NCBI GenBank assembly: GCA_963666275.2
Contig: CAXXOA010000001.1
Span: forward strand, 2,240,001-2,304,000
DNA from: Oceanispirochaeta sp.
GTDB lineage: Bacteria; Spirochaetota; Spirochaetia; DSM-2461
Direction: 5' to 3'
Length of the DNA: 64,000 nucleotides
The notes beneath the pieces were generated by a model, which saw only the letters and a list, made by a program, of their open reading frames with translations, made no database searches and had not been told where the DNA came from. Positions 4,264-26,720 of the stretch are shown in pieces (the stretch's first letter is position 1; the number at the start of each line of letters is the position of its first letter). Position numbers and translations under genes: made by a program.

Positions 4264-5159
4264 TCCCTCTCCTCTCTTTGGCTCTGCACGATTAACCAGG
4301 GTGTTACAATTTCAAGGAACTCCTCAGGAGATTCCTGATGGGGTAGATGCCCCGACCGGGGGATGATTTCCATTCTGGCTCCTGGAATGAGAGACTGCAT
4401 GATCTCACCCGATGAGGCGGGCAGAACCCTGTCCATCTCACCCCAGACAATCAGTACGGGAAGATCAAGCCGGGACAGGTCATCCCGGAACCGTTCACTC
4501 TTGTCAAGCCACAGGGAGAACCTGCGGAGAATGGAAAAGTAGGCGTGCCTCTGCCTGTTGTCGGAAACCCTGTCATGGACCCGTTCATAGAGAAAATCCC
4601 GGTCCTTCCGGGACATCCCCTCCAGATCGGCATAATAGGGATTCAGAGATTTAAAGGCTTCCACAGGCTGGTTCTTTAAACGGCTGTAGAGGAATTCCCC
4701 CACTACCGGCATAAGAAAAAGGAGACTGGAAAGACTGATTTTCTGCTTCTGCGGAACCAGGGCGCCGTCAGCCAGTACCTGAGAGATCATCCTATCGGGA
4801 TAATGCAGCCCACTATACTGAATCAGCATGGCTCCCAGGGAACTTCCTATAAAATGGGCCCTCTGAATATCCAGGACATCAAGAAACTCCAGAAGAGAAT
4901 CTTTCAGAAAATCCATCGTGTAGGAACGGGAGGGTTTATCGCTTCTGCCGAATCCCGGTAGATCCGGAGCCACTATCCTGTAATTCCGGCTTAAACCGGG
5001 GATAACATGGCGCCAGGTATCAGCCTCATCGGCCAGTCCGTGGATGAGAACGCAAACAGGCTTATCCTCTCCGGCAGTATCAAGATAGAAGAGATTCAAT
5101 CCCGACTTATCAAGCCGGACCGATGAGGCGTATGTCTTCAGATCATCCCAGACATTCAT
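4260..5159 (-). CDS. Alpha/beta-fold hydrolase
   Basis: HG oxyanion, DLPGFGRS, GSSLG nucleophile elbow, WGEMD and GHLPH; ATGA-coupled to its neighbours. Confidence 0.9.
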   Translation of the reverse strand: MNVWDDLKTYASSVRLDKSGLNLFYLDTAGEDKPVCVLIHGLADEADTWRHVIPGLSRNYRIVAPDLPGFGRSDKPSRSYTMDFLKDSLLEFLDVLDIQRAHFIGSSLGAMLIQYSGLHYPDRMISQVLADGALVPQKQKISLSSLLFLMPVVGEFLYSRLKNQPVEAFKSLNPYYADLEGMSRKDRDFLYERVHDRVSDNRQRHAYFSILRRFSLWLDKSERFRDDLSRLDLPVLIVWGEMDRVLPASSGEIMQSLIPGARMEIIPRSGHLPHQESPEEFLEIVTPWLIVQSQREERE

Positions 5160-6232
5160 GAGCGGACCCTTTTATTGAGATGGGAATATTCCCTGTCTTT
5201 CATAATCACATGCCGATAGACAAGGTCCTGGGATATATAGTTCAGGAGGGTGATAGGATCCGTTTCATTCTGTCTGAAAAGATCGATGAGAGTACTGAAA
5301 CGGGAAATCAGTTTATTATGCTCCAGAATATGTTCCTTAAGCCCCGGATAGGCCAGTCCTTCCAGGATAGCTTCTTCCGCCCGGAAGTGCTCTGTCACGT
5401 GATGGAGCATCTCATCCAGAGAGGATTCAAGATAATCCGTATCCGTGTGTTTCAGAACCGAATCCAGGATTTTATTGGAATACTGGAAAATCTCCCGGTG
5501 ACGGAGATCTATATCATCGATACCCGCCGAATACTCATGCTTCCATTCAAGTCTCAGTGCACTGTCGGGTACGGACTCTTCTGTTTCTGTTCGGTTTATA
5601 TCCTCGGGAGACATGACCGCAAGGTTCCGTCCGGAATCTTTGGCATGATAGAGGGCCTCATCCGCCCGGGTAAACCAGCTGTTGAAAGTCTCTCCGCTGC
5701 GGAAGGAACTGATCCCGATACTGACAGTCACATCCGCCAGTTCTTTCAAGGGGGATGTTTCTATCCTGTCACGGATCTTTTCCGCCAGGATCAGGGCATT
5801 TACCCCGGTGGTATCTGAAGCGAGAATCAGAAATTCCTCCCCTCCCCAGCGGGCGAAACAGTCGGTTTTACGGCAGATACCCGTGATGGTCCGGGCCACC
5901 TGCTTTAACACCCTGTCGCCGAAATCATGACCGTAACTGTCATTAATCCTTTTGAAATGATCCAGATCCAGGATAAGAAGGGATACGGGTGTCTGAAAAC
6001 GGTTGCATCTGTGCATGGCATTGAGGATACTGGGCTCAATAGCGCGTCTGTTCATAAGACCTGTGAGCATATCTGTCATGGAGAGGCTGTCAAGTTTTCT
6101 GTTTTCTGCCCGGAGCTGACTGTTTTCCTTTCCCAGCTCCCGGACAGAGCTTCTGAGAGAGGACATTTTCAGGGTAAGGAAAACTATGGATCCTACTAAA
6201 ATAACAAAAGCACAGATAAAAAAGATCAGCAC
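5156..6232 (-). CDS. Membrane-anchored diguanylate cyclase with C-terminal hemerythrin domain
   Basis: N-terminal TM plus coiled coil, DLDHFK, RKTD I-site, GGEEF. The C-terminus has hemerythrin ligands H, HFRAEE, HILEH and HVIMKD. Confidence 0.88.
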   Translation of the reverse strand: MLIFFICAFVILVGSIVFLTLKMSSLRSSVRELGKENSQLRAENRKLDSLSMTDMLTGLMNRRAIEPSILNAMHRCNRFQTPVSLLILDLDHFKRINDSYGHDFGDRVLKQVARTITGICRKTDCFARWGGEEFLILASDTTGVNALILAEKIRDRIETSPLKELADVTVSIGISSFRSGETFNSWFTRADEALYHAKDSGRNLAVMSPEDINRTETEESVPDSALRLEWKHEYSAGIDDIDLRHREIFQYSNKILDSVLKHTDTDYLESSLDEMLHHVTEHFRAEEAILEGLAYPGLKEHILEHNKLISRFSTLIDLFRQNETDPITLLNYISQDLVYRHVIMKDREYSHLNKRVRS

Positions 6233-6350: not shown

Positions 6351-7025
6351 TCATAAAGATTCTTCCATCTGCGTTTCCAGGCTATTCAGACCCTTTTCAA
6401 GGGGATGCCCCGGAGAGATTAGAGCCCGGCATTTTCCCAGAATTTCCCGGGACTTCTCGGGATACCCGTAAAAGCTGTAGATTTCAGCCAGTTCCAGATA
6501 GATCTCATACCGGGTTTCCATAAGCAGACTGGCCTGTTCCAGATATACCAGAGCCTCTTCAAGATCTCCCTCCTCCCGCAGGGAGAGAGCTTTCAGGTAG
6601 TGGAGCTCCGGATCCCTGCCGGAACGGGCGAGCCCCCTGTCCAGAAGGGAATCCGCCTCCCGGGATCTTCCCGTATTCAAATAGATTCTGCTCAGGTATT
6701 TGATGCAGTCTATATCCTCCTCACTCCGGGAAGCCAGTTTTTCCCAGACCTTTGCCGCCTTATCCCGGTTCCCGGAAAAATAGAGTGTCCGGGCATAGAG
6801 TTTTTCCGCATCCCCATCAAAAGTCCTCCCTCCGCATAGTTCTTCCAGAATGATCAGGGCGGTCTCCCTGTCCCCCTGATTGTAGAGAACCGCCGCTTTT
6901 TTCAGCTGTTCCTCCCTGACAGCCTGTCTGTGTTCTCTTCTGCCGCTGCATCCCGTAAACACAAGGACCGCCAAAACGATTAGCACCAGGAAGTTCTCTG
7001 TTTTTACTGTTGTTCTTCTACTCAT
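6351..7025 (-). CDS. TPR-repeat lipoprotein
   Basis: Lipobox LVFTG-C followed by tandem TPR-like helix pairs (YLSRIYLNTGRSREA, YLKALSLREEGDLEEA, YLELAEIYSFYG). Confidence 0.8.
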   Translation of the reverse strand: MSRRTTVKTENFLVLIVLAVLVFTGCSGRREHRQAVREEQLKKAAVLYNQGDRETALIILEELCGGRTFDGDAEKLYARTLYFSGNRDKAAKVWEKLASRSEEDIDCIKYLSRIYLNTGRSREADSLLDRGLARSGRDPELHYLKALSLREEGDLEEALVYLEQASLLMETRYEIYLELAEIYSFYGYPEKSREILGKCRALISPGHPLEKGLNSLETQMEESL

Positions 7026-7033
7026 ACAGGGGC

Positions 7034-7106
7034 TTACGGATTTTTTTTCCTCTGTGATTCAATTTTTTCCTCTTTTTTTGAATCACCCTTTATTTTTCTC
7101 CTGTAG
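7034..7106. promoter_or_regulatory. Mirror-symmetric divergent promoter/operator region
   Basis: Perfect inverted repeat GTGATTCAA (7054-7062) / TTGAATCAC (7078-7086). Each strand reads TGAATC-N17-YGTAR toward its gene. Confidence 0.5.
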
Positions 7107-7141
7107 TACAGGGTAGATCCCCCCTATAGGAAGGTTATGTT

Positions 7142-10100
7142 ATGAGAAACAGGTTTATCTCTTTACTCCTTGTACTGTCTTTTCTGCCTCTGCCTGTCAG
7201 TCCGGAACAGGGAGCCCCTTCTCTGTCTCTACCGGAGGAATCATCATGGACAGTCTATGACATCCATCGATCCCTTTCGGAAAGTCTCTCCCATTCGGAT
7301 CTGAATCTCCTATTAACAGGAATGGACCAGCTTGAAAGGGAATTCCTCTACAGGACGGAAGGGGGAAACCTCCTTTTTGACAGTAAAAATGATCCCCTTC
7401 TGAGGAGCAGTGATCCCGCTGAGATAGAACAGGACAGAACCCTTTATGAAAACCGGGCCCGTGCCATTCAGGAGACCCTGCTTTCCCAATGGGAGGAAAA
7501 GGCCCAGAAAGCAAGAACTGTTCTTATGACACCCCTGTCTCAGGGGCAGACAGCACTATCGGAGACAGTGGAGAGGGAGCTGGATCTCTTCCGGCAGAGG
7601 ATATGGGAAGAGACAGACAAGATGATCTGCTACAGGCTGGACCGATTCAACTACTTCAGAAAAAAGGATAATTTCTCACTGCGCAGAAAAAGCGAAGACC
7701 AGACTGCACTCATGGCAGCCGCAGAGCTGACAGAAAGGGTGAATGATGAAACCCGGGAGATCCTGCAGATACTGGAAAAACCATTAGACAGGGAAAGCGG
7801 TGCTGCAGTCAGCCAGGCGTCCTTTTCTCCTGATTCCTGGGAAGAGAGCTTTGACAGGGAGTTCCGGAAGGGCCTTGAAAAATGGCAGAAAGCGGAAGAG
7901 GAAATCCTTTCCGGCCGTATAGACTGGGAACTGGAGCTTTCTGAAAAGTACAGAGAAACCGAAGCCGCCTGGGACAGGTCAATGCAGATTTTCTCAGATA
8001 CAAGGAAAGCCTGGATAGAGGAGATGAAGGATCTCTACAGAACGGGCCTGAACGCATGGGATCTGCAGCAGGAAGAGTATCAGGAAAAGTTTGAAACCAT
8101 GGCCAGGCAGATGGAGGAGGACTCTATCCGTCAGGAGGAGATATTCCTTTCCCGCGTAACAGAGTCTCTGGATATCTACAGGGAGAGTCTGCAGTACAGG
8201 GATTCGGCAGAGAAAAATATTCAGTATTACCAGAGTAAAATCCGGGAATTGGAGGATCTGAAAGCCAATAGCCGGAACAGAATAGACAGCATTGAAACCG
8301 GTATGGCCGCTGCCATGTTTGCCATGAGATTGAATGAGGGCAAACTTCAGAATTCTCAGGTGGAACTTCAGGATCTGCAGAACACTCTGGAATTGCTTCA
8401 GAATGAACGGCAGGAGATCGGGGATGATCTTGATGCTGTGAATGGACGGATTGAAGATTCTGAAGATCTTGAAGAAGAGCTTCAGGACCTGCTTGAAAAA
8501 CAGCAGAATCTGAGGGAAAGGCTGATTGAAGTGAATGAGCAGATTGAGGACACAGAAAATGGAATAGTGACTCTGGAATCAGATATACTTAGAGAACAGA
8601 GGATCCTCGACTCCTACTACACTTCTTATGCCCCCCAGCTGAATGCCATAGCCCTGGAAAGGGGGTATATCATCAGCTATGACATAAAACGTTCTGATTT
8701 TCTGAAGGAAAAAGAGACATGGGAATCCCTGAGCAAAGAGTTTTCCGGGCAGATGAAAAGGGCCGAAGAGGACCTGATCTCTCTTCAGGCGGAAGCCGGC
8801 GCTTATGACACATCGGTCCCCTCTTCCTCCCTGGAACAGGAGATTGCCAGAATGGAACTGGTCACGGAATACCTTTTCCATCAGCTTGCCGTATCAGAAG
8901 CTGTGATGGAATACGCCTCACAGGACACATCTCTCCGACCCCGGGATTCTCAGACACAGGAGGATTACGATGAGGCTCTTTCCAGCCTGGAAGAAGGGGA
9001 AAGGGAATACCTCAGCTTCCAGTCCCGTCTGGACTCGCTCAGAGAGGACCTGACAGGGCTGCAGGAACAGATCCTGGCAAAGGAAAAGGCTCTTCAGGAA
9101 ACCCTGGAGGCTCAGACAGAAGCGGGAAAAGCCTATGAAATGTCCCAGGAGATCTACAGGAACAGTGACATATCCCTTCTGCAGGCCGGAATCAGCAGCC
9201 TACAGGATCAGCTGGATGCCTGGTTCCAGGGAAAAGACTCGGCCCCCCCGGAACGTCAGACACTCTATACAGAATATATCCATGCCGGACAGGCCGACTG
9301 GGTCAGGGAAAAAGAGGAAGCTGCCAGGACTCTGCTGCGGGATCTGACAGGAGAGGAAACTCTCATGGAGAGCGATAACATTACCAATACAGAGGATCTG
9401 TCCCTTCTTATCGCCAATCTTGAAAATCTTGATCCCCGAAGAACTGCATCAGCAGAAGAGTGGGAAAACCAGCTGATTTCCTGCGGTTTTGAACAGGGAG
9501 ACTACGAGTATGAAATCCTTCAGAATCAATTCGGCACAACCCCTTTTCATAGACTCTCTCTGGATAAAGCCCTCCGGGATCTTATCAGGGAACAGAAACA
9601 GAAGTACTGGAATAATGCCCTCCTGGAGGAGAGGCTCCGTCAGGAAGATGACCCATCCCGGAACCTTCAGGAGGATCTGGATAGGGCTCTAAACAGCCTT
9701 TTACTAGAAAAAACAGAGCTTATGATTCTGATCGGAGGCTATCTGAAAGACGGCGGAGAAGTCCTTGCTCCCTACAGGGAGTATATATCTTTTCTGAAAG
9801 ATCAGGGATTCCGGCTGGAACAGGACTCTCTGGATGGCCTGATTCAATTGAGAGAGCTGCTGAACAGACAGCTGGCAGGAGAAATCGGAAAAGAAGAGCT
9901 TTTAACCCTGGTATCAGAACAGGGCGGCCCGGCACTCTGGCTGAGTTATCTAAACGGAGACAACAGCGATATGCCCCCGGAACTTTCCTTCCTGGATATC
10001 TTTCCGGAGGCATCCTATGATGAGGTTCTCCGTGCCCGGGGCGCTCTCTTTGCAGGTGAGTGTATACAGCAGTTCAACACGGGGGCAGAGGTCCTTTTCA

Positions 10101-13100
10101 ATTCATCGGGAATTGATATGGAAACGCTTCTTGAGAGTCTTGAAACCCCGGAAGATCTCAGGCAGTTTTATTCAGATTTTATGAGAGACCCGGAAATTCC
10201 CCCCTCTCTATTATCTCTGGTGGAAAAATACCTGCATTCCCGTTTTGCCGGCCAGTGGGAGGCACTGCTAGCAGACTGGAGTGGTACGGAGGAAAGATGC
10301 GAAAATCTGGAAGACCTGATGGAAGGGATGGAAAGTAACCAGAGTGACGACGAAAAGCTGACTCTTCTGGAAAATAACGGATTCAGCGACGAGGTAGCGG
10401 AACTCCGCAGATACAGGCTTCTCGAGTCATGGCAGACCTTCCTCAAGAACCCGGACAGTCCTGATTTGCCTGAGGGGGAAATGTGGTTGCTGTTCCGGAA
10501 CAGTCATGAAACCGGTGAGATCGATTATGAAACCCTCACTTCTCTGGAAGTTTCCCTGGAAAACCTACCGCCACTCATACCCTATACTTCCTATGGGGGC
10601 AAATCGCTTTTTGAACATATAGAATCTCATTACGGGGACCTTGGATTCACCGGCAGGATCCGTATGATTGAGGAACTCAAGGGATTTCAGTCCGGTACAG
10701 ACGGGGTCCTCTGGTATCTGGAGCAGCAGCTCCACTCACGTTATACAGAGGCCCTGGAGAACAGGGAGTATGCGGCCTTTCTGGAACGAGTCAAATCCAT
10801 AAGAAGAGAGAGCGGCAGTGATGCCCATGAAGAGCTCTTTATGAAAGAACGGATTGGCCAGGCAGGGGATCTTTTACGAGGGGAAACCTCCCTGATTGCT
10901 CAGGAAGACTCTTTCGAAACTCTGGCGGACAGGCTCATATCCATGACAGGTTTAATGGAAAGCCGGGAAAAAGAGAGGAATCAGCTCCAGAGGGAAAAGG
11001 ATATTTTTGCCGAATCTCTCTCCCTGTATAAACAACTTATTATAGACCAGAATTTTGAGGACTTTACTAAAGCCAAATCACTCTATGGGCAGACAAAAAG
11101 TGAAATGGAAACGTTGAGAACCACCTATGGTGAATTACTGGGAGAATATCAGACAGCCCGGAACGCTGTGGAAAGCTCTTACACCCGGTACAAAAAGTTG
11201 AAACTGGACCTTCAGAAGGCCGAAGAAATTCTGGATTATGCGGGGTGCGCCTATGAATCAGTCTCCTACAGTATTGATACTCTCCGGGATCAGAGACAAC
11301 AGGCCTATGATGATTCCCTGAAGGCTCTGGAGATTCTCAAAAGCATTCAGCTGGAGGGAAAAACAGAGATAGAAGCGGATGCCCAGTGGGCTCAGGCCCT
11401 GGAGGAGTACCGGCAGAGGCTGTCTGCTTTGAATCAGATTGGATCTGCCAGGGAAAATCTTGACGAACAAATGGATTCTCTCACAGCAGCCAGGGAAAGG
11501 GCCTTTTCTCAGATGGGAGACACTCTGAAAAAGGTCTTTAATCAATACGGACAGGATTCTCTTATTATGCTCCGGGGAGAAATCCCGACACAGCCCATGT
11601 CGGACTGCACAGTGTTTTCCAATGGCAATCTGGGCTCCTATTTCGACGCAGAGAATATTCAGGAGATCTTTACCGGTGATGCCTGCCGCTGGCTGGAGAG
11701 TATAAAAAACCTGAACTCCCAGGAGGTACTGAAACTTTTCACATTCGCCTACTATCATGAGTTCGGAGGCAGGGTAAACCTTTTTTCCAACTCCCAGCAT
11801 AAGAATCTTCTGGATACAAAAGGCGATTTCTTCAGAAAAGCCTGTATCGGCTATGAGGGTGATATGAACACATATCGGAGCGGCGGGTATTCATCCCGGG
11901 AGGTGACAAGAAAAATCCATCGGCCTGACGGAAGCATTAAAAAAGTATTCATTAAGCCCGAAGTCTGGTTAAAAGAACATACAGGGTCCTATTACAACCG
12001 TGTGGTCAATGATAAAAGCCTGGTCAATCTCTACAGCTTTTTTAAAATTGTCATGCAGAAGGGATTTTTTCTGGCTGAAATGGAAGACAGTATGGCCATG
12101 GAACTTTCAGATCTGGCATGGGATTACCTGAACGATGTGGCCAAGGACGAACAGGAAGATGAAAAAAATATTTTCGGTAAACTGAACAGTCTGGGCAGGG
12201 ACATCAGGGAGAAAAGGCATGCCATCAAAAAGATAAAGAACAATGGCGGTTTTGACGGAACCGCCAAAAGACAGACTCTGCTTGATATGGGAGCAGAGAT
12301 TTCTAATCATACAAGCCTGATCCTGGGTTTTGACAGTCAAATGAAATCCCTTATGAACAGCGGTTCTGTTACAACCGCAACTCTTCTGAGAGATATAGCC
12401 CAGATCAGCGGATCCCCTCTGAAGGAGAGTTCCAGAGAATTGCTGAAACAAATTTTTCAGGAGACCGGAGATTCCTATGAAACCAACAGACAGGCTCTGC
12501 AGAAGCTCTATGGGGATCTTGAAAAAATCTGCAGCATCAGCCGGAATGCTGTTGCTGCAAGAGAGAATGAACTGTCTTCGGAAAGAACAATTCTTCTGGA
12601 GCAGATGCGGGTCTTTTCCCGGAAGGGGGATCTGGAAAAATATAAGGACCTGGCATTGAACCTTTTCGAATCCCCCTCCTATCTGGAGGGAGAGAGTCAG
12701 ATACAAAGGGGTGATCTTCTTCTTGAGACCCCTTCCTTCAGTCCAAGGGGTTTCCTGAATAATCTGAATGCCTATGGGGCCTCTCTGTCCTCGCTCTACA
12801 GAAAACGGCTTGAAATGATCAAACAGAAAACCTATCGCCAGTTGGAACTGGATGTTGAGGAGTTTCAGCAGAGAAGGAAAATCTGGCAGCAGCGCTTTCA
12901 GGAACAGATGGATGACGGCATGGCCCAATGGAAGCTCTCGACTGAGCGGATGATAGGACAGAGAGAAAAATGGCGTGAACAGTTTCTCAGGGAGTACAGA
13001 TCCAAAGACAGTCTCTGGACCATCCGGATGGAGAACTTTTACAGAAACAGAGAATCCTGGATTTATGAAACAACTCTCAATGCCTGTGAGGCCGGAGCGG

Positions 13101-16100
13101 ACTTTATGCAGGAGGAGTACGGCCTGAAGGCAGATCAGCTGATCAATCAGTCCCGGTATTTTCTGATTCCCTCCGTTGGAAATGCCCTTCCGGATGTATC
13201 GGAAATTCTCAATGATGCCATGGAAGGCATCAAAGTGGATCAGATACTCGCTTCCTTTTCCAGCCGAAACGGCAGGATCAGCAGCGGCGGCGCCCTCATC
13301 ACACCTCCTGTCTCTGTTTTTCAGCCCCGTCCCATAGACGCCAGACCTCTTCTGGAAGAACAGAGGGATCTGAAAGAAAAGTTCCGGAAATCCCTTGTCA
13401 TAACTCTGGCCTATCAGATGACGGATGCGCTGAAAGAGACAGAAACATCAGTTCAGGACTCCATAGAAGATGCCAACAGATCCACGGATAACTCAGTGGA
13501 AGACACCCTTGTGAGCAGCGGATATTACAGGAGGGGAAATACATTTTCCCGGCAGATCATTATCGATAAAAGTGTTCTGGGGGGAAATGAAACGGAAACC
13601 CAGAGAATTGAGGCGTTCAGAGACTTTCAGGCCCCCTCCTTTGATCATGGAGTGGAACTCTCGGTAAACAGCCTCAAACATCTGAGCAGTACCCTTATCC
13701 AGGCCCGTGTGGAAAAAGCACAGACCAATATGCAGCACTATCTGGATCTGATATTCGGCAGGGAAAAGGACAGAGAAGGTAATGAACTTGATATCCGTAC
13801 GGGACTGGACGAAGGATTTCTCTCCTATCTGGAAAATCAGGAGACGGCCTTCAGGAGTTCCGCCCAGTATAACGGGGGATTTACAGATGAGAACGGCAAA
13901 TGGCAGACCGAAGGAAAACATACCGAAACAGCAGGGCTCTTCTATTTCCATGTAGGCTATGCTCCCGAAATGAAAGAGAAAAAGCCCGAAGAAGTAAAAT
14001 CCGAAGGTTACGGAGAGATGGGACGCATCTTCAGAGCCTTTAAAATTCACCAGGCCCGTATGTACAGGGGATTCTCTGTGATGGATATGCCCCGGTACAA
14101 CCAGAAACTCTGGGATGATGATGCGGACAATGACGGAAGTTCTGACTCTCTTGTGGGGGCTCCCTCCATGCGAAGCCTAACTGATATTGCCATGAATATA
14201 GCCGTATCTGCCGTCCTGGGTCCGGGAGTGGGAAATCTTGTACTCACCGCCGCCCTGAACCTGGTGGATGATGCCCTTTTCACAGCCCTGGATGTGCAGA
14301 ACGGCCAGCAGAAATCCGGAAAAGCCTGGGGAGACTTCCGCCGGAAAACCGCCATGACAGCCGTTACAACAGCCTCCGGGGCCGTTTTTCAAAAACTGGA
14401 CGGCCTCACTATGATGTCAGAGGCTTCCGGCAGTATGACAGCTGAAGTGATCACTGATACAGCTATTGCCGGGACTCAAACGGCTGTAAATTCAACAGCC
14501 CTGGCAGCGATTGGTAATATTGAGGACTGGAAAAGCTTTGATACGGAGAGTTTTCAGAAGCAGGCATCACTTGAAAATAACCGGGAAGCCTATTTGAACG
14601 GAATGAGCGGCGCGGCTGTCTCCTCTTTGATCGATACCGGAGCTTTCGGATACATAAAAAGTATGAAGACCAACGCAGATAAACTGAGTCAGCTGGCGGG
14701 AGGGCTGACCTCCTCCGGGATGGAATATGCTCTGACAGGAGAGACAAAACTCAATATTGTAAATCTGAGCATGCTCGGTCTGCAGGGAAAAAGCGGTTTA
14801 GTCTCTTCCGGCCTCCTTGAACTGAATCTGGGCGGCAGCGGTTCCCTGCTCTCTATCGGCAACGGCGGGACAGACATCAGTGCGGGAACCATCGGTTCAG
14901 CTCTCAGGGGACTGGAAATCTATCAACATAACCGGGAAATACGGGAATCCGACATGGATACAAGAATGTCTCTAGCCATGAGAACACTGGTTTCATCAGA
15001 AATGGAACAGACGGAACAGCAGTACCGGGACATCCTCAATCATAAAATTGCGTTTACTTCTGTTCAGGAATCGGGTTATGATGGAAAAACCACCATGAAT
15101 GAAGACGGCAAAAAGTCCATAGAATTAAACAGCTCAGACTTAACCAGTTTTGACCTGGCAGTCCTGCTGGCCCATGAATCCTTCCGGGACGGTGTTATCA
15201 GTGACAAAGACTCACAGAACAGAGAAACCCAGGATGCCGTCCGCTCCCATATGGATGTGTCTTCCGCCATTCAGGATACCTACGGATCATCCTATCTGAG
15301 CATTGATAATAACAAGGAAGCCCGCATCTATAAAATGTACCAGAACGGCATGATTTCCAAAGAAGATTTAGGAAACTATGCACTGAAGAATTATGATTCC
15401 TCGGCGGATTATTGGAAGTTTACATCTGACGGCAACATTATTTTTGATGGAAAAAAGAATCTCTATGATGAAAATGGAAAACTTCTTGATGAATATGAAG
15501 GGAACGGAGGTTTCACGGACTCCCTTGCTGCAATGCTTGGTATTTCAAAGAAAGCTGCCAATCAAATGATGGTGAATGCGGGTTGGTCATGGGAGAATGG
15601 TACATTTAAAGCCAATGGCGTAGATGTTTTAAACAATGGAAATACAGCATTAAATACCTCAGATCAAATGAAAGCCCAGTATTTTGTCCAGAGAGATTAT
15701 GTTGATAAGTTATGGTCGACCTATGCAGGTGATATGAGAGCAATGGCAACTGCCATGCAGGAAGATCTTTTCATTGCAAGCAATGATGGAGATTTCAATT
15801 CCACTCAAAAACATATGCTCGATATGATCCCAGGATTACAATCCATGGGAAATCAATTGAAAGTAGCTCTATACGGAGATTCTAGTCATTCAGGAATGCT
15901 GGATCAGGATAGGTTTGATAATTACCACGACTCAAATGTCTCAGGTGCATTTCAGGAAATCAAAGATAATTGGAGTTATACAGATGATAATCCCATGTAT
16001 AGACTTATTGGAGATGGTAAACCCATAGATCCTATTGAAGGAGACGATTATATTACTGTTTGGTCTAGCTATGCAAATGGAAATGAACATGGTTGGAATG

Positions 16101-16444
16101 GTGGAGAAGCCGTTGATTTTGGTACTGATCGTAAAAATCATCCTCTTTTTACTACTCAGTTTGAAACTATACGTACTAATGATTTCAATTTAGGATGGGA
16201 TAAAGGTGATATAAATAAAGGTACTGGTTATACATTAAGATCTGACTCTGATTTATTTTATTTAAAATATGGACATATGCAAGCATCATCTTTTGCTTCA
16301 AGCCAATTGCAAAACTTGATAAATACTGCAAGCCAGTCAGAATTATGGCGTTTCATGTTGCCTCCTGGTTATCAGATAGGAAATATTGGAAATACAGGAC
16401 ATTCAACAGGCAAACATTTACATTGGGAATTCTATCCATATTGA
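7142..16444 (+). CDS. Giant (3100 aa) exported helical protein with C-terminal M23-like peptidase; candidate polymorphic toxin
   Basis: Signal peptide, long coiled coils, Trp-periodic repeats and a hydrophobic Gly/Ala segment. C-terminal H..AVDFG, LKYGHM and GNTGHSTGKHLHWEF are M23/LytM motifs. The 3' end is AT-rich. Confidence 0.75.
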   Translation: MRNRFISLLLVLSFLPLPVSPEQGAPSLSLPEESSWTVYDIHRSLSESLSHSDLNLLLTGMDQLEREFLYRTEGGNLLFDSKNDPLLRSSDPAEIEQDRTLYENRARAIQETLLSQWEEKAQKARTVLMTPLSQGQTALSETVERELDLFRQRIWEETDKMICYRLDRFNYFRKKDNFSLRRKSEDQTALMAAAELTERVNDETREILQILEKPLDRESGAAVSQASFSPDSWEESFDREFRKGLEKWQKAEEEILSGRIDWELELSEKYRETEAAWDRSMQIFSDTRKAWIEEMKDLYRTGLNAWDLQQEEYQEKFETMARQMEEDSIRQEEIFLSRVTESLDIYRESLQYRDSAEKNIQYYQSKIRELEDLKANSRNRIDSIETGMAAAMFAMRLNEGKLQNSQVELQDLQNTLELLQNERQEIGDDLDAVNGRIEDSEDLEEELQDLLEKQQNLRERLIEVNEQIEDTENGIVTLESDILREQRILDSYYTSYAPQLNAIALERGYIISYDIKRSDFLKEKETWESLSKEFSGQMKRAEEDLISLQAEAGAYDTSVPSSSLEQEIARMELVTEYLFHQLAVSEAVMEYASQDTSLRPRDSQTQEDYDEALSSLEEGEREYLSFQSRLDSLREDLTGLQEQILAKEKALQETLEAQTEAGKAYEMSQEIYRNSDISLLQAGISSLQDQLDAWFQGKDSAPPERQTLYTEYIHAGQADWVREKEEAARTLLRDLTGEETLMESDNITNTEDLSLLIANLENLDPRRTASAEEWENQLISCGFEQGDYEYEILQNQFGTTPFHRLSLDKALRDLIREQKQKYWNNALLEERLRQEDDPSRNLQEDLDRALNSLLLEKTELMILIGGYLKDGGEVLAPYREYISFLKDQGFRLEQDSLDGLIQLRELLNRQLAGEIGKEELLTLVSEQGGPALWLSYLNGDNSDMPPELSFLDIFPEASYDEVLRARGALFAGECIQQFNTGAEVLFNSSGIDMETLLESLETPEDLRQFYSDFMRDPEIPPSLLSLVEKYLHSRFAGQWEALLADWSGTEERCENLEDLMEGMESNQSDDEKLTLLENNGFSDEVAELRRYRLLESWQTFLKNPDSPDLPEGEMWLLFRNSHETGEIDYETLTSLEVSLENLPPLIPYTSYGGKSLFEHIESHYGDLGFTGRIRMIEELKGFQSGTDGVLWYLEQQLHSRYTEALENREYAAFLERVKSIRRESGSDAHEELFMKERIGQAGDLLRGETSLIAQEDSFETLADRLISMTGLMESREKERNQLQREKDIFAESLSLYKQLIIDQNFEDFTKAKSLYGQTKSEMETLRTTYGELLGEYQTARNAVESSYTRYKKLKLDLQKAEEILDYAGCAYESVSYSIDTLRDQRQQAYDDSLKALEILKSIQLEGKTEIEADAQWAQALEEYRQRLSALNQIGSARENLDEQMDSLTAARERAFSQMGDTLKKVFNQYGQDSLIMLRGEIPTQPMSDCTVFSNGNLGSYFDAENIQEIFTGDACRWLESIKNLNSQEVLKLFTFAYYHEFGGRVNLFSNSQHKNLLDTKGDFFRKACIGYEGDMNTYRSGGYSSREVTRKIHRPDGSIKKVFIKPEVWLKEHTGSYYNRVVNDKSLVNLYSFFKIVMQKGFFLAEMEDSMAMELSDLAWDYLNDVAKDEQEDEKNIFGKLNSLGRDIREKRHAIKKIKNNGGFDGTAKRQTLLDMGAEISNHTSLILGFDSQMKSLMNSGSVTTATLLRDIAQISGSPLKESSRELLKQIFQETGDSYETNRQALQKLYGDLEKICSISRNAVAARENELSSERTILLEQMRVFSRKGDLEKYKDLALNLFESPSYLEGESQIQRGDLLLETPSFSPRGFLNNLNAYGASLSSLYRKRLEMIKQKTYRQLELDVEEFQQRRKIWQQRFQEQMDDGMAQWKLSTERMIGQREKWREQFLREYRSKDSLWTIRMENFYRNRESWIYETTLNACEAGADFMQEEYGLKADQLINQSRYFLIPSVGNALPDVSEILNDAMEGIKVDQILASFSSRNGRISSGGALITPPVSVFQPRPIDARPLLEEQRDLKEKFRKSLVITLAYQMTDALKETETSVQDSIEDANRSTDNSVEDTLVSSGYYRRGNTFSRQIIIDKSVLGGNETETQRIEAFRDFQAPSFDHGVELSVNSLKHLSSTLIQARVEKAQTNMQHYLDLIFGREKDREGNELDIRTGLDEGFLSYLENQETAFRSSAQYNGGFTDENGKWQTEGKHTETAGLFYFHVGYAPEMKEKKPEEVKSEGYGEMGRIFRAFKIHQARMYRGFSVMDMPRYNQKLWDDDADNDGSSDSLVGAPSMRSLTDIAMNIAVSAVLGPGVGNLVLTAALNLVDDALFTALDVQNGQQKSGKAWGDFRRKTAMTAVTTASGAVFQKLDGLTMMSEASGSMTAEVITDTAIAGTQTAVNSTALAAIGNIEDWKSFDTESFQKQASLENNREAYLNGMSGAAVSSLIDTGAFGYIKSMKTNADKLSQLAGGLTSSGMEYALTGETKLNIVNLSMLGLQGKSGLVSSGLLELNLGGSGSLLSIGNGGTDISAGTIGSALRGLEIYQHNREIRESDMDTRMSLAMRTLVSSEMEQTEQQYRDILNHKIAFTSVQESGYDGKTTMNEDGKKSIELNSSDLTSFDLAVLLAHESFRDGVISDKDSQNRETQDAVRSHMDVSSAIQDTYGSSYLSIDNNKEARIYKMYQNGMISKEDLGNYALKNYDSSADYWKFTSDGNIIFDGKKNLYDENGKLLDEYEGNGGFTDSLAAMLGISKKAANQMMVNAGWSWENGTFKANGVDVLNNGNTALNTSDQMKAQYFVQRDYVDKLWSTYAGDMRAMATAMQEDLFIASNDGDFNSTQKHMLDMIPGLQSMGNQLKVALYGDSSHSGMLDQDRFDNYHDSNVSGAFQEIKDNWSYTDDNPMYRLIGDGKPIDPIEGDDYITVWSSYANGNEHGWNGGEAVDFGTDRKNHPLFTTQFETIRTNDFNLGWDKGDINKGTGYTLRSDSDLFYLKYGHMQASSFASSQLQNLINTASQSELWRFMLPPGYQIGNIGNTGHSTGKHLHWEFYPY

Positions 16445-16460
16445 TTGAGGAGGGAAGAAT

Positions 16461-16994
16461 ATGAGATTAAAAAAAGTAATTATATACAGTCTCATAGTTA
16501 TATATCTAGTTTCATGTAATAAAGCAAAAGAGGACAAAAACATAGATACAAATGATAGTATTATGATTAAAACCAACACAATAAATACTTTAAATGAAGA
16601 AGCAGATATTTTGAGTTCTGACAAAACTGATATTTCGGATTTTACGAACTTTCAGGAGTTGTTTGAAAATCTTCCTATGCCAACAAGTTTGATTGCAAAA
16701 TTTGGAGAAAAGTCATATCTTGGAACATTTTATATTGGAAAAGATGGTATTGAAGAAGCTGTATTTGAAAGCAGTGGGTATGAAATTATCATAGATTCAG
16801 TGGATATAACAGAAAAGCTATTTACTGTAAATTTTTCATTATTAGATACAGGTAATGAGGTAAAAGAAGCAACTGGAGAAGTTTTCTCTTACACTTTAAG
16901 AGTTACTCTTAGTGATTTACTTAATGCCTATAAAAACTCAGAAAATAGATTAAGAATGGAAATACAAGGTAAAAAAGTTGGAGCGAAACCATAA
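16461..16994 (+). CDS. AT-rich lipoprotein, candidate immunity protein
   Basis: Lipobox YLVS-C, strong GAGGAGG RBS, 16 nt downstream of the giant gene's stop, and the same low GC as the toxin tip. Confidence 0.65.
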   Translation: MRLKKVIIYSLIVIYLVSCNKAKEDKNIDTNDSIMIKTNTINTLNEEADILSSDKTDISDFTNFQELFENLPMPTSLIAKFGEKSYLGTFYIGKDGIEEAVFESSGYEIIIDSVDITEKLFTVNFSLLDTGNEVKEATGEVFSYTLRVTLSDLLNAYKNSENRLRMEIQGKKVGAKP

Positions 16995-17060
16995 CTATGA
17001 ATATCCTTTTGTTAGTTGATATTTTCAATTCCTATTACCGAGCAGAGCAAAACTCCATGT

Positions 17061-17202
17061 GGCCCCCAACCCCTAAAGGGTCGTCATTTGCAGGTTAATC
17101 TGAAACCTGATTAATCGACAGCAAAAAATAGAGGCTAAAAATAATAATCCTATACTGATGAAGTGCCTCCCCTTTAGGAGCCGGGGGCCTTCAACAGAGC
17201 AG
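17061..17202. repeat. ~140-bp MITE/REP-like element, copy 1
   Basis: Imperfect terminal inverted repeats GGCCCCCAACCCCTAAAGGG ... CCCTTTAGGAGCCGGGGGCC; near-identical to 17455-17594. Confidence 0.85.
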
Positions 17203-17275
17203 ACACCTCTTATCATTAGGAAAAAAATCTTAAGAGTGTTATGGTGTAGAGGATGGTTCTTTTCATAAACAATTG

Positions 17276-17299
17276 GGCTTCGGCTCCGCTCAGCCACCG
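17276..17299. repeat. Short REP-like unit A
   Basis: GGCTTCGGCTCCGCTCAGCCACCG; its reverse complement occurs, interrupted, at 17635-17682. Confidence 0.7.
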
Positions 17300-17454
17300 G
17301 GTTTTCTAATTAGTGTAATTAAGACCAAACCACTATATAAAACTTTTTCACTCTCATCCCAAAGGAAGCATGAGCTTGTTTAACTTATTCTAGCTCACCC
17401 ATAATGTCTTTTTGGAATAGATGAGCTAACCTGCCAATTTCAAAATACCGTGAA

Positions 17455-17594
17455 GCCCCCAACCCCTAAAGGGTCGTCATTTGCAGGTTAACCTGAAACC
17501 TGAATAATCAGCAGCAAAAAATAGAGGCTAAAAAAATATTCCAATACAGAAGAGGTGCCTCCCCCTTAGGGGCCGGGGGCCTTCAACAGAGCAG
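17455..17594. repeat. ~140-bp MITE/REP-like element, copy 2
   Basis: GCCCCCAACCCCTAAAGGGTCGTCATTTGCAGGTTAA ... CCCCTTAGGGGCCGGGGGCCTTCAACAGAGCAG, a direct repeat of copy 1 with scattered substitutions. Confidence 0.85.
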
Positions 17595-17634
17595 CTAATC
17601 CCTCACCAAAAAAAACACCCCTACACAGAACCAA

Positions 17635-17682
17635 CGGTGGCTGAGCGGATGGTTGCTGAGCGAAGTCGAAGTAGCCGAAGCC
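17635..17682. repeat. Short REP-like unit B (inverted relative to A) with a nested related unit
   Basis: CGGTGGCTGAGCGG[ATGGTTGCTGAGCGAAGTCGAAGT]AGCCGAAGCC. Confidence 0.7.
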
Positions 17683-22966: not shown

Positions 22967-23055
22967 ATTCAGGAATTCATTACAAATTCTAAACACACAG
23001 TATTACATCAGTCAAATGTTTTCCTGAATTTCTGATTTCGCAATTTTTCCTGAAT
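22967..23055 (-). promoter_or_regulatory. Promoter of the oxidoreductase-buk-ptb operon with three TTCCTGAAT boxes
   Basis: Minus strand TTGACT-18 nt-TAGAAT (23015-22986). TTCCTGAAT at 23021-23029 and 23047-23055, and an inverted copy at 22967-22975. Confidence 0.5.
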
Positions 23056-23290
23056 ATTTATTATATAAATAATTATTTAATAAAGGAGATAAACAGTGTT
23101 GATTTAATGAAGACAAGATAGTCGGATTTTGAAGTATATAGAGACTCTATAGAGAAACGCTTCTCTGGACGAAAACTCATTGACCTCCCTGCTGAAATGA
23201 GAATAAGATAAGTCAGAAAACAAATAGATGGATGGGAAGATCCAGACTTTTTGAATAATTTGAAAAAGTAGTTATTCAAAAATATATTTA

Positions 23291-23326
23291 AAAAGCCCGC
23301 AGAATGATACTGCGGGCTATTTTTTT
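23291..23326. terminator. Bidirectional intrinsic terminator (downstream of tyrS)
   Basis: AAAAGCCCGCAG-aatgata-CTGCGGGCTATTTTTTT. Confidence 0.8.
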
Positions 23327-23347
23327 ATAATCAGAAAGCTTTGAGAC

Positions 23348-24592
23348 TTACTTGACGATGAAGCGGAAGAACCGTTTTTTCCCGGCTTTCAGAACAATTT
23401 CTTTTTCACCGTCCTCTTCCACGACAGAGTCCAAACCTATAACAGCATCCACATCGCTGTTCTTTTCTCCATTGATGGCAGCCCCGTTCTGAGAGACCAG
23501 TCTGCGGGCTTCACTTTTTGAGGAACAGAGACCGGACTGGACATAAAGATCCATAATATTCACTCCGGTTTCCAGTTCTGTAACGGCTATTTCCCCGGAA
23601 GGCATTCCCGACTTATCCTGAGCTCCTCCGGCGCTGAAAGCCGCTTTGGCTCCTTCCAGGGCTTTAGAGGCTTCCTCTTCTCCGTGAATGATTTTTGTCA
23701 GCTCATAGGCAAGAATCTCTTTGGCTTTATTAATTTCCTGACCTTCCAGAGCCCCGAGTTTTTTACACTCCTCGGTGGGAAGGAAGGTATAGAGCAGAAG
23801 GAATTTCTCCACATCCGCATCAGCCACGTTTCTCCAGTACTGGAAGAACTCGTAAACTGAAGTCATTTCAGGATCCAGAAAAATGGCTCCTTTTTCGGTT
23901 TTACCCATTTTCTTGCCATCAGACCGGGTTACCAGAGGGAATGTGAGACCGATGGCCTCACCTCCTTCCACCCGGCGGATAAGCTCCATACCGGCTACGA
24001 TATTTCCCCACTGATCGTCACCGCCGATCTGGAGAATACAGTTTTCCCTTCTGTATAGTTCCAGGAAGTCGTAGGACTGGAGGAGCTGATAGTTAAACTC
24101 AATAAAGGAAAGTCCCTTTTCCAGTCTTTTTTTGTAGGATTCAAAAGTCAACATTCGGTTAACGGAAAAGTGTTTTCCGATATCCCGTAAAAATTCAATA
24201 TAGTTCAGAGGGGCCAGCCAGTCTGCATTATCCACAAGTTTGGCCTTATCCCCGTCGAATTTGATAAAATTGGAAATTTGAACTTTCAGTTTTTCCGCAT
24301 TTTCCTTGATCTGATCAATGGTGAGCATTTTCCTCATGTCCGACTTTCCCGAAGGATCACCTATACGGGCGGTTCCCCCTCCGACGAGAATGACAGGAAG
24401 ATGCCCTGCTTCCTGAAGATGATGCATGGCAAAAAGAGGCACCATATGGCCCACATGCATGGAAGGTCCCGTGGGATCGACACCGACATAAATCCTGACA
24501 GGTCCCTCATCCAGTTTCTTGTTCAGCAGATCCTCGTCTGTACACTGTTTGAAAAAACCCCGTTCCTTCAGGACGGCCAATGCCTTGTTCAT
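23348..24592 (-). CDS. tyrS: Tyrosine--tRNA ligase
   Basis: GVDPT..MHVGH (HIGH), QIGGDDQWGN, KMGKT and a C-terminal S4 domain. Confidence 0.97.
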   Translation of the reverse strand: MNKALAVLKERGFFKQCTDEDLLNKKLDEGPVRIYVGVDPTGPSMHVGHMVPLFAMHHLQEAGHLPVILVGGGTARIGDPSGKSDMRKMLTIDQIKENAEKLKVQISNFIKFDGDKAKLVDNADWLAPLNYIEFLRDIGKHFSVNRMLTFESYKKRLEKGLSFIEFNYQLLQSYDFLELYRRENCILQIGGDDQWGNIVAGMELIRRVEGGEAIGLTFPLVTRSDGKKMGKTEKGAIFLDPEMTSVYEFFQYWRNVADADVEKFLLLYTFLPTEECKKLGALEGQEINKAKEILAYELTKIIHGEEEASKALEGAKAAFSAGGAQDKSGMPSGEIAVTELETGVNIMDLYVQSGLCSSKSEARRLVSQNGAAINGEKNSDVDAVIGLDSVVEEDGEKEIVLKAGKKRFFRFIVK

Positions 24593-24926
24593 AATTTACC
24601 ATCTCCATTAAATCAATATAGGTTAAAGGATTTTACCTGAAAGGGGTGATTGTGACAAGAAGAATCCACCTCTATAACACTGGTAGAACTACTCAGGGCT
24701 TATCTGGATCTATAATGGTTCTCCTCTCGGGAATTCCATTCAGTTTTTTTGTATCAGATGTGTAACCCCAATACCGCAATCTCGGAAACCCCAACAAATA
24801 TGACTTTTTTACAAATGTATAATAAACTGGACATACAATATCATTTATGTTAACTTAGCCCTAATTATCAATATGATAGGCAAATAATCAAAAAAAGTTA
24901 AAAATACATAAAATCCGGAACTGACA

Positions 24927-26663
24927 ATGAATACAAACTTGAAATCTCACCTTTTTTTTGATTCTGACGTCCTAGAACAACAAAGAAAAAAGCTTACACG
25001 CACTTTTATCATCCAACTTTCTGTGGCAATCATAATACTTCTGTGCGCTTTACTTATCAATCATTTCTGGAAGATCTTCGATCTCTATGCTTTCAGCTTT
25101 GATTTTCTCATACTTATGTTTATTGTTGGCTGGTTTCCTGCCCTGCATAAGACAAATATTTTTCTGAAAACGGGAATATCTATGCTCATTCTAAGTCATT
25201 CAATTGATCTTACAGATGAGTTGATTTTCCTTAACATAGAGGAATGGCGTGGAACTATACCCTATTATATGATCTCTCTTCTGAGCATTATGTTAATGAT
25301 GACAGGAGTATATCAGAATAAAAAAACCAGGCTTCTTCAGGAACAGGAAACAAATCTGCTTCTGTTTCAGGACAGTTTAACCGGTCTGCCCAATAGAAAA
25401 CTCCTATACAGACAAATGGAGGGAATCCTTAATTTTTCTGAGAGATCCCCTATCAATCATGCTGTAATGATGCTGGATTTTGACAATTTTAAAAGCGTCA
25501 ATGACACTCTCGGACATAATACCGGTGATATGTATCTGAAGAAAATATCAAATACAATTAAAAATGAAATCCGTAAATCAGATTTATTAGCCAGGATAGG
25601 GGGCGATGAATTTTGTATTGTATTCAGCAATATAAAAAGAATCAACGAATTGGTGCACCAGGCAAACAGAATTCTGAATATCATTAATCGGCCATACCTG
25701 GTGGAAAATGAAATAATTCATCTCAGCGCCTCCATCGGCATCGCGGTATATCCCCATGATGGAATGACGATCAATGAACTGATGAAATCTGCTGATACAG
25801 CTCTGAATAAGGCAAAATCTTCGGGTAAAAATTCTTTCCATTTTTTTGATTTAAAAATGAAAGATGAAGTGCAAAGGTATCATAATCTTTCGGTCCATCT
25901 TAAATCGGCTCTTAAGAATCAAGAAATATATACCGTTTTTCAGCCTATTGTTTCTGATTTTCATGGAAAAGCGGAAAAATTTGAGGCCTTGATGCGATGG
26001 TATAATCCCTGCCTGGGCTCCGTAAGCCCTGAGGATTTCATCACTATTGCAGAAGATACAGGTATGATAATTTCACTGGGAGAATGGATCTTAAGAGATA
26101 GCTGTCAGAAAATGATGGTATGGATGAAGACCCATGAAGAAACCCCGGTATTGTCTGTCAATATTTCTGCACAACAATTGAAAGATAAATGGTTTCTCAA
26201 AAAAATTGACGATATTCTTGAAAATACAGGCTTTCCTCCTGAACAGCTGGAACTGGAAATAACAGAGACCCGTTCGATCCAGAAACTTTCCGCCACGTCC
26301 AATATCCTCAATGAGATAAAAGACAGAAAAATCAAACTGTCACTTGATGATTTCGGGACCGGCTATTCATCACTCAATTATATAAGAAAGCTTCCCCTGG
26401 ATACACTTAAAATTGATAAAAAATTCATTGATGATATGGAACAGGGAGAGCGGGGAGAAAAACTGCTGGCCTGCATCATTGAACTGGCTAAAACACTTAA
26501 TCTGAATGTCATTGCAGAAGGTATTGAGAAACAAAATCAGGCAGAGTTTGTGCTCAGAAATGGATGCCATTATATGCAGGGCTATCTTTTCTCCACACCG
26601 CTGGAGTTTTCAGAGTTACTCAAATCCAGCAGATGGCCTGTAACAGGACATTTCCCTCTATAG
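24927..26663 (+). CDS. Membrane-bound GGDEF-EAL protein
   Basis: About four N-terminal TM helices, RKSD I-site, GGDEF, EAL, DDFGTGYSS and QGY. Confidence 0.92.
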   Translation: MNTNLKSHLFFDSDVLEQQRKKLTRTFIIQLSVAIIILLCALLINHFWKIFDLYAFSFDFLILMFIVGWFPALHKTNIFLKTGISMLILSHSIDLTDELIFLNIEEWRGTIPYYMISLLSIMLMMTGVYQNKKTRLLQEQETNLLLFQDSLTGLPNRKLLYRQMEGILNFSERSPINHAVMMLDFDNFKSVNDTLGHNTGDMYLKKISNTIKNEIRKSDLLARIGGDEFCIVFSNIKRINELVHQANRILNIINRPYLVENEIIHLSASIGIAVYPHDGMTINELMKSADTALNKAKSSGKNSFHFFDLKMKDEVQRYHNLSVHLKSALKNQEIYTVFQPIVSDFHGKAEKFEALMRWYNPCLGSVSPEDFITIAEDTGMIISLGEWILRDSCQKMMVWMKTHEETPVLSVNISAQQLKDKWFLKKIDDILENTGFPPEQLELEITETRSIQKLSATSNILNEIKDRKIKLSLDDFGTGYSSLNYIRKLPLDTLKIDKKFIDDMEQGERGEKLLACIIELAKTLNLNVIAEGIEKQNQAEFVLRNGCHYMQGYLFSTPLEFSELLKSSRWPVTGHFPL

Positions 26664-26692
26664 AAAAAAAACCGCATCCGGAGATGCGGCTT
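26663..26692 (-). terminator. Intrinsic terminator for glyS
   Basis: CCGCATC-cgga-GATGCGG stem with an A-run on the plus strand (U-tail on the minus strand). Confidence 0.8.
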
Positions 26693-26720
26693 GTATAGTA
26701 AAAAATTAAGTGCCTTTGAA

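Follow-up and report, generated by a model that had tools for sequence, protein, structure and literature searches.

A candidate polymorphic toxin system of spirochaetes: a giant Sec-type carrier with exchangeable tips, putative immunity lipoproteins and an association with a TolC/RND gene cluster

A very long exported-type protein of a spirochaete of the genus Oceanispirochaeta is described here together with the two lipoprotein genes that flank it, as a candidate polymorphic toxin system. The genes lie in a stretch of 64,000 nucleotides (the window; assembly GCA_963666275.2, contig CAXXOA010000001.1, positions 2,240,001 to 2,304,000). Three open reading frames (ORFs), each recovered exactly where an original prediction from this DNA had put it, make up the locus: a TPR lipoprotein gene on the reverse strand (6351-7025, 224 aa), the giant carrier-toxin gene on the forward strand (7142-16444, 3100 aa, ~350 kDa) and, also on the forward strand, a small lipoprotein gene (16461-16994, 177 aa) that is the putative cognate immunity gene. 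The lipobox cysteines, taken from sequence reading, are C26 in the TPR protein and C19 in the small lipoprotein. The TPR gene is divergent from the carrier as had been proposed, its TPR families exceed the Pfam cut-off, and no sigma-70 site was found in the divergent gap. Carrier and small lipoprotein gene are separated by 16 nt containing the ribosome site GAGGAGGG, in agreement with the separate ribosome-binding site first suggested. GC content at third codon positions in the carrier drops from ~0.5 to 0.2 past aa 2800; overall GC is 0.29-0.33 across the end of the tip and the lipoprotein gene, vs 48% for the genome.

The carrier (all its features on the forward strand) starts with a Sec-type signal-peptide-like N-terminus (7142-7213) marked by a hydrophobic stretch. 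In a crude scan the best 11-residue hydropathy of this N-terminus is 2.9, in line with the signal peptide initially noticed, and 29 of 30 full-length carriers have a hydrophobic stretch within their first 110 codons. N1, a Trp-rich helical domain (7436-8323, aa ~99-394), is the marker of the family throughout the phylum; W2, a second Trp-rich domain (12689-13621), internally repeats part of N1 (aa 233-323 against ~1915-2003, E 1e-5) and is also present in giants from other classes. Further downstream are a GY(A)P...GYGE.GRI...WDDD core (13922-14188), highly conserved in the Spirochaetia subfamily, and a Gly/Ala-rich hydrophobic segment (14174-14923, aa ~2345-2594) recognized by hydropathy, composition and conserved glycines. 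The latter had been reported before, its onset is now placed at aa ~2345 by hydropathy and composition, and it is a candidate membrane-crossing part. The body had further been described as helical and coiled-coil; it is indeed charged and helix-prone, but by a crude heptad scan strong coiled-coil is limited to residues ~406-654 and 1334-1385. The remainder of the protein comprises a pre-tip domain modelled with a zincin fold (14924-15421), which includes the junction motif YDSSADYWK (15392-15418), and a variable low-GC tip (15419-16444) with an M23-like peptidase core at aa 2936-3100.

No Pfam or NCBIfam family matches the carrier above its cut-off; M23 is matched weakly at the final residues. 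Residues 1901-2800 are matched in 20 of 40 relatives, and in most of these the similarity stops near aa 2800. A database search in which the best 8000 candidates were scored gave 27 homologues, all unnamed or annotated as hypothetical, with a precomputed M23 domain in 4 and M15 in 1. The N1 profile (A6) matches 87 of 401 genomes of the phylum, and in a protein library without taxonomy the N1 family forms 382 clusters at 50% identity. Relatives occur in Treponema (including gut Treponema) and Leptospira, most of the named records being environmental assemblies; there is mostly one full-length copy per genome, and none was found in G002, a near-complete genome of the same genus. A contig collection gave no match when searched with the single carrier protein; with a narrower alignment it gave 23 loci: 21 bear a spirochaete title, 1 a Planctomycetota title, and 1 marginal match is actinobacterial. 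The Planctomycetota contig (L131), a metagenome-assembled genome by its title, has 64% identity to the carrier core and may reflect mis-binning or transfer. N1 had no match in a plasmid collection, and no RNA sample was listed among the sequencing runs searched. In the ESM Atlas, where scores below 0.9 are treated as leads only, the carrier core scored best with a hypothetical protein (0.87), followed by an M48 peptidase (0.82) and clostridial neurotoxin clusters (0.80 and 0.77).

The identity between relatives shifts at YDSSADYWK, the swap point. The window carrier and a carrier of the same genus (L031) fall from 48% to 10% identity just past the motif, and comparison with an orphan cassette of G345, a genome from a different family that holds the closest tip to that of the window, shows identity climbing from 28% to 74% at the motif. 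A 90%-identity cluster named Treponema berlinense (93 members, 40 read) contains 10 full-length proteins, all such among the 15 listed; between them they bear 7 different tips, on bodies with 96.8-100% identity over 2400 aa. The carriers of G217 and G262 are 86% identical over 2725 aa and have unrelated tips; the G262 gene is trailed by an orphan cassette of the G217 tip (97%) and its immunity gene (91%), a tip displacement caught mid-process. The window genome, G004 (same genus) and G003 have three distinct tips, followed by three distinct genes, at one shared chromosomal site flanked by the TPR/GGDEF genes and a phosphate-butyryltransferase operon. Orphan units, each consisting of a partial carrier, a tip and a small low-GC gene, are found in arrays (a full copy plus 5 in G336, a full copy plus 3 in G315, 6 in G345, 3 each in G330, G232 and G290, and 2 in G342). 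Six genomes (G232, G257, G290, G342, G345, and G348) have partial carrier cassettes only, without a match to N1 or to the Ig lipoprotein described below; these are possibly immunity archives left after loss of the weapon.

Taken together, loci and database proteins supply 67 distinct tips spread over many clusters. In a pre-tip domain tree built from 45 of 46 rows (L033 was omitted since its tip is cut by a contig end) the copies cluster by genome. The tip classes, labelled by hand, are scattered over it and need 25 changes, the minimum being 8 and the mean after shuffling 29.7. The check proposed at the outset, namely a search for homologues sharing the body, bearing unrelated tips and followed by different small exported genes, returned all three. 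These alignments establish a conserved body of ~2750 aa and an exchangeable tip joined at YDSSADYWK, the tip travelling with its own small protein of exported type. A housekeeping role in wall remodelling, in which the carrier would be a periplasmic ruler placing a hydrolase, the lipoprotein its regulator and the pump cluster described below a scaffold, would suit the signal peptide, the peptidoglycan-enzyme tips, the chromosomal position and the usual single full-length copy, but it is improbable in view of 7 unrelated tips on 10 near-identical bodies, the orphan arrays, the low GC of the tips and a presence so patchy that a near-complete genome of the same genus appears to lack the carrier.

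The genes behind the tips are consistent with immunity functions. An abutting ORF on the same strand is present for 40 of 46 locus tips (the 6 others include at least one gene skipped by the ORF caller); 38 of these 40 ORFs are lower in GC than their own locus and 39 start with a hydrophobic stretch, so that protection would be located outside the cytoplasm. Several of the partners are FGE-sulfatase proteins, a fold reported as type VI secretion system (T6SS) immunity in the accessible part of a preprint (bioRxiv 10.1101/2021.05.21.445229). The window lipoprotein has no family in Pfam, NCBIfam or PHROG; among the loci its homologues occur only behind related tips (G345, E 4e-10; G342, E 3e-4), no significant similarity emerged when it was compared directly with the L046 lipoprotein, and its best ESM Atlas score is 0.88, with a hypothetical protein.

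Co-folding of tip and lipoprotein, the second check suggested with the prediction, gave a complex score of 0.79 vs 0.03 for the best of 3 controls; this level was attained by 116 of 157 solved pairs and by 2 of 215 mismatched ones. Runs share at least 88% of their contacts, the pLDDT (predicted local distance difference test) of the partner is at least 84, and the tip, chain 1, is folded with high confidence in the complex. The modelled interface covers the metal site, including D2992, H3045, H3092, and H3094, and the FESSG loop of the lipoprotein (E103-S104) is modelled onto D2992 and H3092. The model supports binding of the lipoprotein to the tip, with the lipoprotein over the active site.

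The window tip has the zinc ligands and catalytic His of M23 type (H2983, D2992, H3045, H3092, and H3094), the last four of which are invariant in 8 of 8 related tips. A profile of these 8 tips matched, among PDB sequences, M23-type or M23-containing chains only (10 sequences, E 1e-4 to 6e-3, all covering the C-terminal motif only), and one relative (P0173) carries PF01551. The M23/LytM-like assignment made earlier is upheld by these ligands and profile matches, except that the first motif is H2983-x8-D2992 and not a compact H..D. Within the limits of motif and model, the tip is predicted to be an M23-type zinc peptidase whose active site is covered by the lipoprotein. When Pfam was run on 27 tip sequences, M23 was found in 2 above and 3 below the cut-off, M15_4 in 1, and NlpC/P60 in 1 above and 1 below; all tips named by a library are peptidoglycan peptidases (M23, M15, or NlpC/P60).

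Two further classes are suggested by motif, a Cys/His papain-like class and one with H...S/T-x-GC (H...SDGC), the latter with nothing significant among PDB sequences. The H...S/T-x-GC tips resemble the LD-transpeptidase motif of Tlde1, HXX14-17-(S/T)HGCh as given in the available text of PMC9638812, but are without its second His. Tips P0108, P0170, and P0161 fall outside the named classes; two of them have the motif GT[FY]NF...H...DV.P and one has YYLLFNNCGQ. The YYLLFNNCGQ motif, which has no Pfam match, recalls in our view permuted papain-like enzymes.

Two other origins were considered. A host-directed adhesin or an antigenically varying surface protein would agree with the occurrence of relatives in Treponema and Leptospira; it is very improbable, given that the named tips act on peptidoglycan, that most named records are environmental assemblies and that a cognate inhibitor makes sense only if the producer itself is sensitive. 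Still less probable is a relic of a phage tape-measure protein or tail lysin, to which the length and helical nature of the protein, its hydrophobic segment, its M23 tip and a weak PHROG tape-measure match (E 0.003, over the coiled-coil region) would point; this explanation is already largely refuted by the signal peptide in 29 of 30 carriers, the cognate immunity genes, the metabolic rather than phage genes that flank the loci examined and the conserved core without PHROG match.

The pre-tip domain, which occupies the place of release peptidases in polymorphic toxins, was modelled over residues 2595-2787 at a pLDDT of 86.8 (46 rows). It contains an HExxR...E...H motif (H2678, E2679, R2682, E2695, and H2703) in which H, E, and R are invariant in 46 of 46 copies and the later Glu and His nearly so; a distant copy in G016 (L047) has HEGSH, the canonical zincin motif. 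Its fold matches are mostly zincins of many kinds with middling Z scores of 4-6.5 (e.g., deuterolysin, Z 5.9, root-mean-square deviation 4.4, 105 aligned residues). Foldseek with this model gave nothing at E <= 0.001, and the profile of the domain gave nothing significant against PDB sequences. The domain is, on the model, a candidate release protease or an inactive scaffold, and autoproteolytic release of the tip by it is a doubtful proposition.

The system shares with the polymorphic toxins reviewed by Zhang et al. (2012) (CDI/CdiA, Rhs, LXG, MafB, and MuF; accessible text of PMC3482391) a conserved carrier, a fixed junction, a variable C-terminal tip, a pre-toxin peptidase-fold domain, an adjacent immunity gene and orphan cassette arrays. 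In the spirochaete loci the N-terminal carrier is conserved while the C-terminal tips are unrelated, the adjacent immunity gene is exchanged together with its tip (the complex itself being modelled), and orphan tip/immunity cassettes are present as well. It differs from the toxins listed there in that both tips and immunity proteins are extracytoplasmic and in its linkage to TolC, MFP, and RND proteins. The words TolC, RND, and efflux have no occurrence in the accessible text of that review, and neither this text nor that of bioRxiv 10.1101/2021.10.19.465003 lists a TolC-linked trafficking class, although the supplements could list members. It is highly probable, on these comparisons, that the family constitutes a toxin/immunity system with a new polymorphic-toxin carrier. 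The tips and partners recall the peptidoglycan effector/immunity pairs of T6SS (M23, NlpC/P60, Tlde1, and the FGE-like Tsi3) in their warhead and immunity folds and differ from them in that the tips are fused to a Sec-type carrier.

Several known delivery systems were considered and set aside. The proposal that the carrier belongs to none of Rhs, CDI, LXG, or MuF agrees with the Pfam and NCBIfam scans, which found no YD, FHA, PAAR, WXG, LXG, MuF, or Hint family in it. Rhs/T6SS, LXG/T7SS (type VII secretion system), and MuF were rejected since YD/RHS, PAAR, LXG/WXG, and MuF domains were not found in the carrier, and the T6SS sheath gene VipB was not found in the 97% complete window genome. Contact-dependent inhibition (CDI) or two-partner secretion was rejected on the lack of an FHA family by Pfam; a search for the TpsB partner ShlB matched nothing, and neither did its control. 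Type I secretion was discarded because the cluster has RND and not ABC proteins and the carriers have signal-like N-termini.

The likeness drawn at first to the very long Leptospira proteins of TIGR04388 (Lepto_longest) extends to length but not to membership: the carrier falls below the 45-bit cut-off and the window genome has no match. Of the 59 genomes matched by TIGR04388, 58 belong to one family (58 of 80 genomes there), in which profile A1 matches 0 of 80; the remaining match is below the cut-off and inside the G217 carrier. Weak similarity between the two groups is confined to 50-95 aa of the Trp-rich domain, at iE ~4e-5 to 7e-3 when a small local database was searched and with no match to reversed decoys; this short stretch may be remotely related. 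A Leptospira giant of ~4200 aa belongs to the family of the window carrier, is separate from TIGR04388 and lies beside the pump cluster. The TIGR04388 proteins are presumably the LA_3725-type Hint toxins. LA_3725 of Leptospira is described, in the part of PMC4751964 consulted, as a Hint-bearing polymorphic-toxin-like protein; unlike such toxins, the carrier has no Hint in the Pfam and NCBIfam scans and its pre-tip domain is modelled as a zincin fold. Within the listings that the literature search covered, no paper was found that describes the carrier family or a toxin role of the cluster, nor any comparable interbacterial weapon of spirochaetes.

In other spirochaetes the TPR gene belongs to a cluster with the order TPR, small lipoprotein, TolC-like OEP, MFP, two Big_5 (Ig) lipoproteins and two ACR_tran (RND) proteins; OEP, MFP and two ACR_tran subunits give the composition of a heteromeric RND tripartite pump. 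The TPR gene heads the cluster and is divergent from the carrier in G027, G020, G029, G022, and G016; among individual loci, L031, L037, L032, L039, L041, L044, and L045 have the TPR gene divergent from the carrier, and in L070, L071, and L072 it heads the cluster without a carrier alongside. In G336, G217, G262, G309, G315, and G303 the carrier follows the cluster genes on the same strand as the last gene. The TPR lipoprotein had been suggested as a possible delivery or assembly factor; its link to the carrier stands, but it forms part of a larger TolC/MFP/Ig/RND cluster, and the window copy is a candidate chaperone or assembly factor detached from the cluster, in which it is usually the first gene. 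In the window genome a cluster without TPR gene lies at C1:1677329-1689007, ~570 kb from the window carrier, and adjoins a 5'-truncated carrier paralogue (C1:1670728-1673889, 1053 aa) that starts at carrier aa ~2006, lacks N1 and has a Cys/His tip with an FGE immunity gene. At this second locus (G000:C1:1669856-1689007; L049, L051) two unrelated lipoprotein genes and repeats replace the 5' part of the carrier and the TPR gene, which suggests an ancestral locus split by rearrangement. The TPR gene is beside the carrier in 3 of 10 same-genus carrier loci.

Carrier and cluster tend to occur together. Of 40 relatives, 20 are carrier-positive; the second Ig lipoprotein has a strong match in 17 of these and in 0 of the 20 without the carrier, where two weak matches sit in long unrelated frames. 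Among 400 genomes of the phylum, 81 have both N1 and Ig, 5 N1 only, 16 Ig only and 298 neither (Ig in 81 of 86 N1-positive vs 16 of 314 other genomes), at an Ig cut-off of E <= 1e-40 chosen afterwards in an empty gap of the bimodal distribution. In the 79 genomes with both places listed, the two are <=20 kb apart in 40; 2 genomes have them far apart on one contig, and the remaining 37 on separate contigs. A giant of 2376-4204 aa lies alongside 7 of 10 clusters in other classes; the 3 others (G329, G383, and G098) have none within 40 kb and N1 elsewhere in the genome. Leptospira-family giants of ~4200 aa adjoin the cluster in L126 (G437) and L112 (G144), with a low-GC lipoprotein downstream in G437. 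In G016 (L047, L058) carrier and cluster are both fragmented, with transposase-like ORFs interspersed.

The two RND subunits, the adaptor and the outer-membrane factor resemble heteromeric pumps of MdtABC-TolC/MuxABC type; the cluster differs from them by its TPR lipoprotein, small lipoprotein, two Big_5 lipoproteins and eroded relay Arg, and from both these and MacAB by its tie to a protein of 250-450 kDa. Aligned with two ordinary RND proteins of the examined loci, 19 of 19 RND1 and 17 of 18 RND2 proteins keep the Asp of transmembrane segment 4 (TM4), and the relay Arg is retained in 11 of 19 RND1 (plus 3 with Lys) and 7 of 18 RND2. These residues we take to be equivalent to the proton relay of AcrB. 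MacAB-TolC takes Sec-exported enterotoxin II from the periplasm (consulted text of PMC8277102). On balance, export of the carrier by the linked pump cluster has about an even chance of being correct.

Another possibility, less probable though of some weight, retains the polymorphic toxin and gives the cluster another task, either as an envelope scaffold for anchoring or folding the carrier or as a small-molecule exporter, with the toxin leaving through BAM, vesicles or lysis. This would accord with the lack of precedent for such cargo size among tripartite pumps (PMC8277102, text as available), with the unlinked cluster throughout the genus of the window genome, and with a TM4 Asp retained as in ordinary pumps. 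A patchy Leptospira cluster of two AcrB, AcrA and TolC, similar to the present one as far as its description goes, has moreover been read as drug efflux (PMC4956267, accessible text). Against it stand the tight co-occurrence and adjacency of carrier and cluster across classes, the same-strand operon structure, the joint decay in G016 and the fact that simple drug pumps have neither two Ig lipoproteins nor a TPR lipoprotein.

Overall, the window genes are best explained, with good probability, as a spirochaete interbacterial polymorphic toxin acting in the envelope of the target. The carrier would be exported by Sec to the periplasm, where the immunity lipoprotein would keep the tip inactive; the machine of TPR lipoprotein, TolC, MFP, two Ig and two RND proteins would then carry the toxin across the outer membrane or display it there. 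Upon contact with a neighbour, the Gly/Ala segment may aid entry into its periplasm, with the zincin-fold domain possibly freeing the tip, and peptidoglycan cross-links would be cut in cells without cognate immunity. As to a general, phylum-wide and so far unnamed two-step secretion, in which an RND/TolC/adaptor/TPR/Ig machine exports or displays Sec-exported toxins of 250-450 kDa recognized through N1 and W2 and delivering cell-wall hydrolases, the arguments for and against are about equally strong.

A number of observations weigh against this explanation. Toxicity, binding and export by the pump come from inference or modelling. The M23 match of the window tip in Pfam (E 0.0046) reaches 17.6 vs the 28.7-bit cut-off of PF01551, the single-chain AlphaFold model of the tip (8 rows) has a pLDDT of 35.6, and the score of the complex is that of a model whose input alignments (8 and 5 rows) lie outside its calibration. 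The pre-tip motif is HExxR rather than HExxH, with a best fold Z of 6.5, which is middling. The papain-like and H...SDGC tip classes have no library match, one Leptospira tip (G437) has an AHSAG motif that we take to be lipase-like, and it is therefore not established that all tips attack peptidoglycan; of 86 long homologues, tip profiles assign 40 to tip classes and leave 46, some of which are truncated. The full carrier is unlinked from the pump cluster in the window genome and in 10 of 10 same-genus loci, the Ig protein is found in 16 genomes that give no N1 match, G001 (85% complete) and G032 have long carriers and no Ig match, and the genomes behind the carrier and Ig counts, being related, are not independent. 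The polypeptide cargo of MacAB-TolC reaches up to ~10 kDa (PMC8277102, in the part seen), vs ~350 kDa for the carrier.

Other features of the window lie outside the three genes. Two copies of a 155-nt repeat with inverted ends, without strand assignment, are located at 17048-17202 and 17441-17594; together with 17214-17320 and 17627-17682 they form a set of REP- or MITE-like repeats. Two other repeat types of this set are present in many copies at the second locus (C1:1669.3k-1677.2k), on either side of a 127-aa ORF, which in our estimation resembles a GIY-YIG nuclease. A GGDEF-hemerythrin gene (5156-6232, reverse strand) is syntenic past the TPR gene in G003 and G004 and is probably mere genomic neighbourhood. 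A second low-GC stretch (~23000-26700, GC 0.36-0.43) includes a 578-aa ORF at 24927-26663.

The family, present in about a fifth of the sampled genomes of the phylum (87 of 401), offers a testable competition system for spirochaetes and a source of new pairs of cell-wall hydrolases and inhibitors, and it provides a candidate function for a pump cluster hitherto read as drug efflux. If such two-step secretion exists, spirochaetes would have their own equivalent of CDI or T6SS, based on an RND machine that handles giant protein cargo; should the pump indeed move the carrier, the range of cargo known for RND-TolC systems would widen more than tenfold.

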